A stretch of DNA of 64,000 bases. It comes from Octopus vulgaris. Taxonomy: Eukaryota. The notes beneath the pieces were generated by a model, which saw nothing but the letters and a program-made list of their open reading frames with translations, did not search any database and was not told the DNA's origin. The stretch lies in NCBI GenBank assembly GCA_951406725.2, contig OX597818.1:32984001-33048000 (forward strand), given 5' to 3'. Position numbers and translations under genes: made by a program. Shown here in pieces: positions 6,522 to 55,217 of this stretch (position 1 is its first letter; each line of letters begins with the position of its first letter).

Positions 6522-6650
6522 ATTTATTTTATAGAAGGAGCTTCTACAGGACTAGAACTGTTTCATTCAAAAGAAATCATCAGGAAGCCTGATGATTTCT
6601 TTTGAATGAAACAGTTCTAGTCCTGTAGAAGCTCCTTCTATAAAATAAAT
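6522..6650. repeat. Perfect fold-back palindrome, 63-bp arms and 3-nt loop
   Basis: 6522-6584 is the exact reverse complement of 6588-6650; loop aag. Confidence 0.95.
6540..6588 (-). ncRNA. Minimal type-I hammerhead ribozyme motif (Penelope-like-element type), C3-G8 core
   Basis: Minus strand: GCTTC-CTGATGA-t TTC tttt GAA t-GAA-ACAG ttctagtc CTGT-A/GAAGC. Stem I GCTTC:GAAGC, stem III ACAG:CTGT, GUA cleavage triplet; stem II is weak (U.U closing pair). Confidence 0.7.
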
Positions 6651-6912
6651 TAATTTACTCTGCTATGTATTGAGTACCTTATTTACTGTGGTTAACCCCG
6701 ACTCAACCCGGGACCTACATATATATATATATATATATACATACATACATATTTACATGTATATATATATATATATATATATATATATATATATATATAT
6801 ATATATAAAATATACGCCCATAATATTATTATCAAATAATGTATATATGTATTTTAATACTTTTGTGACAACCAGTAGTTAACACAACAAAGCTTATACA
6901 AAGCTTTACGTT

Positions 6913-6958
6913 TTACTTTTGACGATCTTTTTCTAAAAATGTGAAACCGGTCAAGTGA
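6913..6958 (+). ncRNA. Degenerate minimal hammerhead motif (U3.G8)
   Basis: ttACTT-TTGACGA-tctttttctaaaaatgt-GAA-ACCGGT-C/AAGTga, followed by aataaa. Confidence 0.55.
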
Positions 6959-7531
6959 ATAAACATCTTTAAAATTGCATTTTCAAGCTTCTTTCATATA
7001 TATTTCCACTCGTGCGGTACCTTGCAACTTCAATTTGTTATATATATATATATATATATATATATATATATATATATATATATATATATATATATATATA
7101 TGTAATTGAGATAGGGGTTGTGAGTGCAACCCACGATGGGATACCCATATCTGCATGGGTGAAAAAGCTGTAAGATGTAGTTTATTTATATTTATTTATA
7201 TTCACTTATACATATTGTACTTATTGTATCATATTACTCATTGATGTCCATTGTCTTGTTCTATATTATTATGTTTGACCTTGATGTTCATATGTAGTGG
7301 TTTAATAAATTATGTGATTGGGTATTATCTGGTCGTTGATTATTGATTAAGGTGTATTTCTCCATTTTCTTATTTATGTATATATATATATGTATGTATA
7401 TATATATATATATATATATATATATATATATATATATATATATATATAAGAAAGTTTGTTTGGTAAAGCACGTGGAAATCTCCTGGAAATAAAAACAACG
7501 ATAATTCCATGCAATATAAACATAACGTCAC

Positions 7532-7571
7532 AAGAAATTTGAAAAGCTACACTCGAAACCGGTAATTTCTT
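7532..7571 (+). ncRNA. Minimal hammerhead motif with U3-A8 core variant
   Basis: AAGAAAT-TTGAAAA-GctacactC-GAA-ACCGGT-A/ATTTCTT: 7-bp stem I, palindromic stem III, GUA site. Confidence 0.65.
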
Positions 7572-7707
7572 TAAAAATTTTAAAATTATGTCATTTTAAG
7601 GAAAGGGAAAAAAAATTTTTCCTATATTCTCCAGACATTTTGACACAAATATATATATTTTTTAACATTTAAGCCTTCTGTCGTTTTTTCACACTGTACT
7701 ATTTTCT

Positions 7708-8062
7708 TATATATATATATATATATATATATATATATATATATATATATATATATATATATATATATGTATGTATGTATATATATATATGTATATATAT
7801 ATATATATATATATATATATATATAAATGTACATATATATGTACATATATATATATATATGTATGTATATATATATGTATATATATATATATATATATAT
7901 ATATATATATATATATGTATATATTTATATATATGTACATATATATGTACATATATATATATATATACATATATATGTATATAGATATGTATATGTATAT
8001 ACATATGTATATATATTTATACATATATATATATGTATACATATATGCATATATATACACAC
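7708..8062. repeat. (TA)n/(TATG) microsatellite block
   Basis: Visible simple repeat. Confidence 0.95.
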
Positions 8063-51937: not shown

Positions 51938-52268
51938 AGGCGGCGAGCTGGCAGAAACGTTAGCACGCCGGGCGAAATGCGTAGCCGTATTTAGTCTGCC
52001 GTTACGTTCTGAGTTCAAATTCCACCGAGGTCGACTTTGCCTTTCATCCTTTCGGAGTCGATAAACTAAGTACCAGTTACGTACTGGGGTCTTTGTAATC
52101 GACTTAAACCGTCTATCTGTCCTTGTTTGTCCCCTCTGTGTTTAGCCCCTTGTGGGTAGTAAAGAAATAGGCATTTAGTCTATATTTACGTTCTGTTTTC
52201 AAATTCAACCGAGGTTCGAATTTGGTTTTCATCTTTTCGGAGTCAATGAAATAAGTACCAGTTGCGCA
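51938..52268 (+). mobile_element. Family A SINE dimer
   Basis: Full unit then aaatag|gcatttagtct junction into an older body. Confidence 0.85.
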
Positions 52269-53044
52269 CATATATTTCATCCTATTCTTTCCAACATGAA
52301 TAAATGATAAAAAGTAGTTCGCTGAAGACGTAGCCTGCTGAAAGGAGACACAAAATATTCTGGCTGGAATAGTATTGTATATACATGGATTTGATTAGTA
52401 TTTTGCGTATTGTTAAAGCGCATCAACTACAAGAATAACACGCGGATATTAGGTAAAATGCTGAAATATTTTAATCGTTTGCATTTTATTAAAAAATGAA
52501 CAAAATATACGTTAACCACTGAAAACGCGAGGTATCGTCTTCAAAATGAGGTAATCAAATCTATGTAAAAACGTCACGGATGCGGTCGTACTTGTGGTAT
52601 GGAAATGGATTATCACCCTCGATTTACAATGTAAAACAATTAAACGGTTGCTATATAATTGTTGAATTATCATTTCCCTTTCTCGTCATGACATAAATAT
52701 GAAATCTATTCGATGTGACATAAATATGAAATCTATTACGCTAATGAAAGAGATCGGTGAGAAAGCTCATAGAAAGAATCAAACACACATCACCTTTGTT
52801 ATAACCATGGTATATAAATTAGCACCTCTCCCCACAAATTCTCCACAGCGAAAGGAAGGAAAATTTTGGCTAGTGTAGTTTGGTGGACACCACAATGGGT
52901 AAATAGGCAATGATCAGGATTGGGATGCTATTGGGAACAGCTCTTGTAGATCAGATTTGATATGCCTTTAAAACAAAACCGCGAACAAAACCCTTGCTCC
53001 TATTGAAGAATCGAGTCATTTTTCCGCAACGTTTGATAAACTAT

Positions 53045-53477
53045 ATTCTTTTCTAATCTAAGCACAAGGTCCGAAATGTTTGAGGAGAAAACCAGTCGAT
53101 TAGATCGACCCCAAAACGCAACTAGTACTTAATTTATCAACCCCGAAAGGATGAAATGCAAAGTCGATCTCGGCGGAATTTGAACTCAGAGCAAAAAGAT
53201 AGAAGAAATACTGCTAAGCATTTCACCCGGCGCCCTAACGTTTCTTATTTCTTTACTTCACACAAGTAGCTACAGACACAGAGGACAAACGAGGACAGAT
53301 AAACGGATTAAATCGATTATATCGACACCAGTGAGTAACTGCTACTTATTTAATCGACCCGGAAGGATGAAAGGTAAAGTCGACTTCGGCAAAATTTGAA
53401 CTTAGAACATAATGACAGACGAATTACCGCTAAGCATTTCGTCCGGCATCCTAACGTTTCTGCCAGCTCGCTGCCTT
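53045..53477 (-). mobile_element. Family A SINE dimer (junction in the head at agaaa|cgtt)
   Basis: Two Meta-like cores with different tails. Confidence 0.8.
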
Positions 53478-53989
53478 GTTTGACGAAATATATTTTAAGA
53501 TAATATTTTCTGTTTCGTTTATTCACGTAGAAGTAAGAATCAAATCTGCATATTTTCTGTTACTTTTTGTTTCTTTCTCAATATTGAAAAATATATATTT
53601 TATCATGTGTTGTTTTGCCAAAATGGCTAATCTTCAGGGATTAAAACAAAATAGGAAGAGTGTTCATTCTCTTAAACGGTGTATATTTATATATCCAAGT
53701 ATAAAATTTGTATGTGTGTATTTATAGGAATACTTATATTCGCATAAATATGCAGGTACACAAACAGACATGCAAGCAAATGTGTGTGTGTGTGTGTATG
53801 TGTGTGTGTGTATGTGTGTATGTGTGTGTGTGTGTGTGTGTGTGTGTATACTTTTCAACATTAGCACAAGTGCACGCTTACACAGAGTTCAAACTGAAGC
53901 TAATTTTCCTTTATATCAAATATACATGACGATATTAATATGTAAGCACATTTTTAACTTTCTGAGTCTATAGGAAGAGGCAGTTCTCA

Positions 53990-54700
53990 TGACCTGTGCA
54001 AGCCTTCTAAAACCGGTGAGACTGACGCTGTTATTATTCCTCCTGAATATTCGAAGATACACAACTACGAGAAAGTTATGAGGAGTGAGTGAACTACAGA
54101 AACCCGAATTGCTGGGAAACAAGAACTGAGTGTATGCGATTAGAGGCTGGAGAGTTGGACATAGCGACAATGATTGGAGGTGGAAGAAAGAATGGGATAG
54201 GAATGCAGGAATGGATTTGACACGATCCCAGCTAGATCCGAGGAGCAATGGCCATTAGGGTAGTAGTAGAAAATTAGGAGATGAGACAATACACTTATGA
54301 GTCGAGGCAGAAAACATGTCTGTGAAAGACTTAACGCCTATCAGCCAACGGATCCCTTCTCTGGATGCAACCTATGATGTAGCTATGAGCAGCAGCAGCC
54401 GTATTTCAAATCTGAGAGTAACATTTCATTGTGCATTTCATCAGAGATTTGTAACTCTGAAGAGCGACGTTATTCTTTGGGATGTGATCCTAGCTACGTT
54501 AAACATGTTCTTTCTCGAGAATAGCTCATCGGTGACAGAGAGTGATTTTGAGGGTTCTAGTTGCTCCTGAGTAAGGGATGTAGTGCGATGTTATTTTCTT
54601 GATATGAACAGAGCTTGTGAATTCATGCTGCTGAAACAGAGAAAATTGGCAATTAGCAACTGAAGGATACTATCAAGGTTCCGATGATAGAGCCAGTGTG
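53990..54700 (-). mobile_element. Decayed CR1/Zenon-like LINE ORF2 C-terminal region
   Basis: Minus strand: MFNVARITSQR..MKCYSQI*NTAAAAHSYIIGCIQRR/IRWLIGVKSFTD..HKCIVSS..FYYYPNGHCSSDLAGIV, resembling MEYCSHIW..LDRIQRRAIRLI..FYRYY.G.CS.EL. Confidence 0.7.
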
Positions 54701-55183
54701 CGTTTGGCAGTCTGTGACTAGTCTAGGACTGCATAAAGCATGGTCGAAGAAGCGCAAGAGAAGAAGACTATCAACAGAAATACTGTTAAAGACATATTAA
54801 CGCATACAGGCGTATTAAGTCAAATAAACGCACAACGCATGAACACCTTTAAAACTAAATAGAATTAGAAAAAGCATCGTATAAACCCTTTGTCACTGTC
54901 TATTCATATATGTCACGCATCGTTTACTTGTTTGTATGTGAATTAACAAAAACAAAAAGAATCCCAAAAGAACTCAATACATGTTACACAATTTCCATTC
55001 ACATGGAATTCGTTGATGATACTTCCTTTTATGACTACACACAGATTTAACACATATCCATGTGTGAAGTACATCGCAATCATTTGCGTAACTTGTATGT
55101 GAAGACCTGTACACACACATGCAGGCATATATATATATATACATATACATTCTGTTTTCTCTCCCTGTTTATTTCTGTATTCC

Positions 55184-55217
55184 TTTCTGTCGAAGAGCGT
55201 AGGCTCGAAACGTAAAA
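55184..55217 (+). ncRNA. Hammerhead motif with a mutated core (CTGTCGA), in a pLTR-like cassette at about 55150-55300
   Basis: TTT-CTGTCGA-a-GAGC gtag GCTC-GAA-ACGT-A/AAA; downstream sequence is related to the 47252 cassette. Confidence 0.6.

Follow-up and report, generated by a model that had tools for sequence, protein, structure and literature searches.

A 64,000-nt stretch of the Octopus vulgaris genome (GenBank assembly GCA_951406725.2, contig OX597818.1, positions 32,984,001 to 33,048,000 of the forward strand), hereafter called the window, contains dispersed short cassettes that carry small hammerhead ribozyme motifs. The explanation that we favour, and regard as quite probable, is that these cassettes are 5′-truncated and partly inverted 3′ ends of Penelope-like elements (PLEs) with minimal hammerheads, in which the pair between core positions 3 and 8 has been kept by selection. 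Because the C3-G8 families of the window are accompanied by U3-A8, A3-U8 and G3-C8 families, all four Watson-Crick forms of this pair occur in one genome.

Results

Core states in families of hammerhead cassettes

We searched the genome (2.8 Gb, 227 contigs) with patterns in which the stems were fixed and the seven core bases were left free, using reversed patterns as controls. Core states were counted by eye in the first 100 matches listed per search; the match counts include both strands and mirror arms and are not insertion counts. These core-free counts cover the 6913, 7532, 13203, 46529 and 47252/55184 families, each family being named after its cassette in the window (Table 1). A first-pass annotation, made from the window sequence by a model, had proposed that several families use non-canonical but compensated cores that a CUGANGA search would miss, and this was borne out at the family level. 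The 13203 family gave 500 matches (control 0), with A3-U8 in 97 of the 100 listed and the exact core ATGAATA in 88, and the 7532 lineage, which comprises several stem II subfamilies, gave 1,605 (control 0), with U3-A8 in 97 of the 100 listed. The U3·G8 core TTGACGA at 6919, which the annotation had counted among the natural forms, did not survive: because the 6913 family (773 matches, control 4) reads mostly TTGACAA, with TTGACGA in none of the 100 listed, the window core is the decayed copy of a U3-A8 family.

We then removed the dependence on family by using a pattern in which positions 3, 7 and 8 are free and the 10.1-11.1 pair is G-C (GAAACCGGT), which gave 4,584 matches against 15 in the control. 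Among the 100 listed, the 3-8 pair was U-A in 59, A-U in 31, U·G in 5, G-C in 1 and mismatched in 4; C3-G8 was found in none of these ACCGGU-type matches, and CUGANGA descriptors miss thousands of motifs in this genome. The G3-C8 form, which goes beyond what had been claimed, was matched 115 times against 2 in the control. A core-free search of the pseudo-long terminal repeat (pLTR) lineage that carries it gave A-U in 58, G-C in 37 and a mismatch in 5 of the 100 listed of 223. The G-C and A-U copies of this mixed lineage are sister subfamilies with the same stems I and II and, judged by sequence, are a case of compensatory change within one lineage. Stem I also differs compensatorily between subfamilies, as read by eye. 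Two smaller variants were seen alongside: a U3·G8 wobble subfamily of several copies nested in the U3-A8 lineage (L298, L299), and a fold-back in a U3-A8 subfamily with one A3-U8 arm, a single-copy double change (L037/L038; G000:C1:7828092-7828244).

A tree of 34 distinct endonuclease remnants of at least 70 aa resolved three groups by 3-8 state, separating U-A from A-U plus mixed (support 100/100) and recovering the A-U group, which is the 13203 type of the window (100/99), and the mixed G-C/A-U group (94/96, just short of the star threshold); the U·G subfamily is nested in U-A. In a tree of pLTRs (40 rows, positions 3 and 8 masked), G-C copies fell on both sides of the midpoint root and A-U copies within one half, which implies 2 to 4 G-C/A-U changes. 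At least three double substitutions within the ACCGGU group, plus one from C-G, would be needed to account for these states. The open reading frames (ORFs) of U-A and A-U elements are 55-62% identical.

Invariant core positions A6 and A9 are broken in two other families, both of whose window cores (55187, A6U; 46535, A9C) had been taken as canonical and are uncompensated. The 47252/55184 group gave 15,874 matches (control 0), and in the 100 listed position 6 was U in 87, A in 10, C in 2 and G in 1, N7 took all four bases, and C3, U4, G5, G8 and A9 were kept in 96-100. Position 6 was U in 23, A in 11 and C in 1 of 35 copies met incidentally in other loci and the window. The 46529 family gave 4,048 matches (control 0), with C at position 9 in 92, A in 6 and U in 2 of the 100 listed, and its best copies show 97-99% identity with the one in the window. 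The A6U and A9C families are hammerhead-derived. In the A6 sister subfamily of the 47252 type, CCGACGA (U4C) is frequent (7 of 11 A6 copies listed, with examples in L011, L030, L042, L205, L291, L306 and L319), possibly a further family-level core change. As for the families outside the core-free counts, the 6540 family has 5,793 exact genome matches, and the 37038-family core is CTGAAGA in loci that reach it, the CTGGAGA of the window being A6G decay.

Linkage to Penelope-like elements

The eight window cassettes belong to multi-copy PLE families, of which they form the 3′ ends (pLTRs), and a link to ORFs is shown for most of these families. Reverse transcriptase (RT)/GIY-YIG ORFs or their remnants lie upstream on the same strand in the 7532, 13203, 37038, 46529, 47252-type and 55184 families, with the 46529 and 37038 cases in loci L117-L119 and L139/L141, and loci of the 7532 family contain near-identical ORFs that end ~160 nt upstream of the hammerhead. 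For 51 of the 130 distinct ACCGGU-type hammerheads in the fetched loci, an ORF remnant on the same strand ends 124-434 nt upstream (21 U-A, 16 A-U, 8 G-C and 6 other), in agreement with the linkage that the first-pass annotation had suggested looking for. A near-full-length 47252-type element in L306 consists of a pLTR, an ORF with one frameshift, a 2.9-kb simple-repeat 3′ untranslated region (UTR) and a second pLTR, an arrangement seen in this one relative only; its ORF is 68% identical over 149 RT residues to the A6U-family ORF of L080/L359. A Cys-rich linker (CX2-5CxxC) of Neptune/Nematis type precedes the endonuclease in the 7532, 13203, 46529 and 47252/55184 ORFs. Simple-repeat 3′ UTRs (CA/TG or C/T) of 0.7-3.4 kb between ORF and hammerhead were observed in L306 (minus strand), L311 and L080.

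The copies show the PLE traits of 5′ truncation, inverted 5′ copies, an optional 3′ tail and AT-rich or microsatellite targets. Because they are dispersed, 5′-truncated, inverted and ORF-linked, the analysis supports PLEs, not retrozymes, as their carriers; of the TA-targeting PLE or retrozyme-like families that had been envisaged, the PLE part stands and the retrozyme-like part, for which no arrays were seen at the eight window sites, does not. An ORF scan of the window found no PLE ORF of at least 120 aa.

Chance controls, folding and (TA)n context

A structure descriptor matched the window 8 times, against 0.1 ± 0.3 in 30 block-wise dinucleotide shuffles, so that the motif frequency exceeds that of shuffled DNA; the descriptor was tuned post hoc, misses the decayed core at 6919 and counts both arms of one fold-back. 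A looser earlier descriptor gave 5 matches, two of them probably chance, namely 51476(+), a G3·U8 with a 6-bp stem I, and 16172(−), an A3·G8, and both are dropped by the stricter one.

Rfam scans listed no hammerhead among 150 of 535 window matches, which were of microsatellite type and nearly all to microRNA models, and in 4 loci no match reached the gathering score. This and the unremarkable folding of monomers are expected because the motifs are minimal and of dimer type. When two copies were folded together, the predicted structure was the classical dimeric hammerhead with a 6-bp intermolecular stem III in 4 of 4 ACCGGU cases. Mirror arms were rejected as dimer partners, the arms being antisense.

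Of the 9 window cores, 7 have a (TA)5+ tract no more than 200 nt away, compared with 35% of background positions. The annotation had therefore been right about proximity to (TA)n but not about embedding, as the 3′ ends of the elements abut the tracts and do not lie within them.

Boundaries of the 6540 family

The element copies come with one of two 3′ tails, short or long, that end in (TA)n. For the 6540 family we sampled 90 of 3,371 copies, chosen by the 3′ tail alone, and dropped 2 that could not be aligned. Of the remaining 88 5′ ends, 35 fall at −46 to −43 from the cleavage site, on the first bases of stem I, 24 at −41 to −14, 3 downstream of the site, 5 at −54 to −85 and 21 at −116 or beyond; none lies within 3 nt of the predicted cleavage site. 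The motif (T/C)ATAAAT stands exactly at −29 from the start of stem I in 13 of 13 distinct long copies with a varying spacer, a set confined to copies with such a TATA-like box. The box and the pile-up of 5′ ends at stem I were also noted together in the window (6522-6718) and in L150, L166, L191 and L196. The ribozyme's first base is thus a likely candidate transcription start, and because 5′ ends avoid the cleavage site and pile up at the start of stem I, uncleaved RNA was likely the template.

Junctions are heterogeneous among the 822 fold-backs of this family. Owing to this heterogeneity and to longer copies that are not folded back, we rejected the idea that the palindrome propagates as one fixed unit. 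In a separate observation at L046:1360-1760, one presumed-RNA run showed 22 A>G changes antisense to the element against 5 T>C, and two other runs showed 1 A>G each, which hints at A-to-I editing of fold-back double-stranded RNA, although strain differences may be the cause.

Cassettes and neighbouring features of the window

The window has ~35% GC and 152 tandem-repeat rows. The first-pass annotation had placed eight cassettes of shared architecture here, seven of which we recovered; the eighth, 37038(+), is a core-less arm starting at 37047, and the cored copy is its mirror at 36957(−). Its list of core states held for C3-G8, U3-A8 and A3-U8 and omitted the A9C and A6U cores. The three-stem anatomy N3-U-G-A-N-N8-A, GAA, NUH with a 3-8 pair is present in the 6540, 6913, 7532, 13203, 37038 and 47252 families. 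All four of the fold-backs that had been described were confirmed (6522-6650, 13007-13298, 36757-37225 and 46319-46694), the first lying inside 6407-6807 in a repeat search.

Table 1. Hammerhead cassettes and associated PLE features of the window
Feature	Positions	Strand	Core	Remarks
6540-family PLE pLTR fold-back	6522..6718			Between two (TA)n tracts; + arm long-tailed, − arm short-tailed, junction at stem I; + arm (core 6589-6595) lacks 5′ strand of stem I
6540 hammerhead, type I	6540..6588	−	6583 CTGATGA, C3-G8	Descriptor and family matches; U·U at 10.1-11.1, 4-bp looped stem III, GUA site
Minimal hammerhead, 6913 family	6912..6959	+	6919-6925 TTGACGA	Stem III palindrome ACCGGU; element about 6860-7038, stops at (TA)n
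Minimal hammerhead, 7532 family	7532..7571	+	7539-7545 TTGAAAA, U3-A8	7-bp stem I, stem III ACCGGU; element 7449-7707, flanked by (TA)n tracts; young family
Mirror arm of A3-U8 hammerhead	13068..13102	−	13097 ATGAATA	One stem III change
Minimal hammerhead, 13203 family	13203..13237	+	13208-13214 ATGAATA, A3-U8	Stem III ACCGGU; in long arm of fold-back 12952-13298
37038-family cored hammerhead	36904..36960	−	36957 CTGGAGA, C3-G8, A6G	Stem II long; stem III 11 nt, near-palindromic
37038-family mirror arm	37047..37225	+		5′-truncated, core-less
Hammerhead anatomy, 46529 family	46529..46573	+	46535-46541 CTGATGC, C3-G8 with A9C	Young family; stem II of 6 bp, stem III not palindromic; element 46470-46694, inverted core-less arm 46319-46456
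Minimal hammerhead, 47252 type	47252..47288	−	47283 CTGAAGA, canonical C3-G8	Stem III ACGU; A6-bearing relative of 55184 family
Minimal hammerhead, 55184 family	55184..55217	+	55187-55193 CTGTCGA, C3-G8 with A6U	Element about 55150-55288, stops near (TA)n; largest family found

The window also holds a decayed GIY-YIG endonuclease relic at 14886-15433 (+), ~40% identical to the 37038-family ORF (E 1e-30) and with no clear hammerhead seen downstream, and at least 13 copies of a 145-nt repeat resembling short interspersed nuclear elements (e.g. 14288-14432, 28738-29236, 31225-31369), which partly form inverted pairs and are unrelated to the hammerheads.

Discussion

The proposed mechanism

Under the explanation favoured here, about eight endonuclease-bearing PLE families ending at (TA)n would each carry a minimal type I hammerhead, predicted to cut its own RNA as a dimer or with the aid of an element protein. 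Target-primed reverse transcription, begun at AT-rich nicks, would copy the element RNA from either of two starting points and so give the short and long tails, and head-to-head joining of two cDNAs would account for the fold-backs. A TATA promoter in the 6540 family would start transcription at the first base of stem I, and copying up to the uncleaved 5′ end of the RNA would yield hammerhead cassettes of about 140 nt. The lineage with the 6-nt palindrome would have passed through at least three double substitutions (U-A, A-U, G-C and A-U again), with a Watson-Crick 3-8 pair kept throughout, and its encoded proteins are about 50-60% identical. Selection would act on master copies for the active-site fold, probably through the processing of tandem or read-through transcripts by occasional self-cleavage.

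Because the uncompensated A6U and A9C lineages spread to thousands of copies, fast cleavage was probably dispensable for their copying. A9 pairs with G12, and A9C would be damaging. A6U may be slow rather than dead, because a natural A6C hammerhead is weakly active, with a kobs below 0.1 per min (PMC3088659). In the cofold predictions, dimer geometry is best in the lineage that retains its 3-8 pair and weak in the families whose cores are uncompensated; selected, occasional cleavage in the former and relaxed or lost cleavage in the latter is the likeliest account. A bolder version, in which one PLE lineage walked through U3-A8, A3-U8 and G3-C8, the A6U and A9C families spread uncleaved, the ribozyme serves as a brake or switch and these forms are unreported, is one that we put forward tentatively, as somewhat less probable than its negation.

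Evidence against and rival explanations

Several results weigh against the favoured explanation. The Pfam matches of the encoded proteins are below the curated cut-offs (GIY-YIG E 1.8e-4 to 6e-3, RVT_1 E 4-5e-4), and 7 of 12 scanned proteins matched no Pfam family. The ORF link of the 6913 family is thin (one 39% match ~1.25 kb upstream among 20 loci), and that of the 6540 family is one locus, 3.4 kb upstream. Monomers fold no better than shuffles (z −1.32 to +0.41), and the cofold minimum was the dimeric hammerhead in 0 of the 3 other cases (2 ACGU, 1 A9C). The boundary peak at −45 coincides with a 4-nt palindrome, which could favour end-joining. No RNA run on record contains the U3-A8 element stretch. 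The existence of the U3·G8 subfamily (5 of the 100 listed) means that strict Watson-Crick pairing is not absolute, many forks are unresolved in both trees, and the copies are non-independent, so that the evidence amounts to about three to four double changes, not hundreds.

Among the rivals, the one with the best claim, though we still think it unlikely, is that what maintains the hammerhead fold is a non-catalytic job such as protein binding, RNA dimerisation or RT positioning, in vivo cleavage being negligible. It would fit the 0 of 88 6540 copies bounded at the cleavage site and the dominance of A6U and A9C in the largest and youngest families. It is also in line with published material: catalytic mutants remain able to insert in vitro and RNA-seq reads ending at the site are absent (PMC11167929), and PLE clades without canonical hammerheads proliferate well (PMC8557442). 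However, positions 3 and 8 make a tertiary contact within the active core, U4, G5, A6 and A9 are kept in the ACCGGU lineage although they were left free in the searches, and cleaved RNA could be a poor template that leaves no genomic trace. That a few master copies, complementary by accident, set the 3-8 states through neutral founder effects appears improbable. Only about three to four independent double changes have to be explained in this way, uncompensated cores became dominant elsewhere and a U3·G8 subfamily exists, but all family-level states are Watson-Crick or wobble, mismatches occur only as scattered single copies (4 and 5 of the 100 listed), and the adjacent core positions did not change across this span of divergence.

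It is very improbable that the cassettes are non-autonomous non-LTR retrozymes whose tandem monomers circularise after self-cleavage, even though short ORF-less cassettes predominate and animal retrozymes have type I hammerheads with a proposed origin from PLE pLTRs (bioRxiv 10.64898/2026.07.22.740005). Head-to-tail monomer arrays were found at 0 of 8 window sites, copies are 5′-truncated or inverted with two alternative 3′ tails, longer copies run into RT/GIY-YIG ORFs, and copy boundaries lie away from the cleavage site. The view that the motifs arose by chance in AT-rich DNA, or by post-insertion decay of C3-G8 families, can be set aside almost completely. Decay is true of two positions, the copy-specific G8 at 6919 and G6 at 36957, and monomer folding is unremarkable, but families have hundreds to thousands of matches against 0-4 in reversed controls, and at the family level the variant core in about 97 of the 100 core-free matches listed refutes this explanation.

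Comparison with known PLE hammerheads

Minimal PLE hammerheads, the dimer model, inverted pairs and natural U3-A8 have already been published (PMC4209133, PMC3088659). The first natural U3-A8 covariation was described by Perreault et al. 2011 (PMC3088659), and a natural U3-A8 family of about 1,300 matches is known from Schistosoma mansoni (Cervera and de la Pena 2014, PMC4209133). In the active fold, C3 and G8 form a tertiary Watson-Crick pair (PMC3884650). The octopus motifs resemble the metazoan minimal hammerheads of PMC4209133 in their short stem I, G10.1-C11.1, palindromic stem III and predicted dimer-type fold, in the additional base that some families have between 9 and 10.1, and in occurring mostly as solo truncated copies and opposite-strand pairs. 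Unlike the 56-row alignment there (Fig. S3), which contains only CUGANGA, UUGANAA and one UUGAAGA, the octopus has A3-U8, G3-C8, a G-C/A-U switch and A6U- and A9C-dominated families, as well as an ACCGGU group with a 6-nt palindromic stem III and a very short stem II. PMC3088659 records a natural substitution at position 6 and a U10.1-U11.1 mismatch like that of the 6540 family, whereas A3-U8, G3-C8, A6U and A9C are not found in the portion available, which deals with isolated sequences and not with families of thousands.

In PAc, the Poseidon element of Anolis, C3G/G8C partly rescues the hammerhead, cleavage needs protein, uncleaved RNA is the main template and cleavage is not required for in vitro insertion (Frangieh et al. 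2024, PMC11167929). The octopus elements share with PAc the optional tail and the AT-rich target, and probably the two internal RT starts that give this tail and the use of uncleaved RNA as template; their hammerheads may likewise be assisted by protein. They differ in that G3-C8 is natural rather than engineered, and in that several of their ORFs have the Neptune/Nematis-type Cys-rich linker. For PAc, the available text of PMC11167929 mentions no counterpart to the TATA-like box that stands 29 nt upstream of stem I in the 6540 family, and the internal promoter of Drosophila Penelope lacks a TATA box (PMC2377424).

A3-U8, G3-C8, A6U or A9C PLE families were not found in the literature searched, which was available in part and whose coverage did not extend to the catalogue of Lunse 2017. 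The latter work, by Lunse, Weinberg and Breaker, reportedly deals, to go by its title, with small PLE-associated hammerheads that cleave as dimers. The family-fixed A3-U8, G3-C8, A6U and A9C cores are thus apparently new variants of known PLE hammerheads, U3-A8 being already known.

Implications

PLE hammerheads are slow, their catalytic mutants insert in vitro and some clades do without them (PMC4209133, PMC11167929, PMC8557442). On the question of whether they must cleave in vivo, this genome supplies natural cases that match one another. The retention of a 3-8 pair across repeated double changes speaks for selection on the active site, and the great success of the uncompensated A6U and A9C subfamilies for cleavage being dispensable or costly. 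The compensated and uncompensated families thereby form a natural contrast that makes the question of in vivo cleavage testable. If the bolder version is true, the repeated compensatory change would be a natural rescue experiment showing the active site under in vivo selection, while two of the most prolific families would have fixed inactivating core changes and a third would start transcription on the ribozyme's first base. In that case the ribozyme would act on retrotransposition as a tunable brake or as a processing switch.

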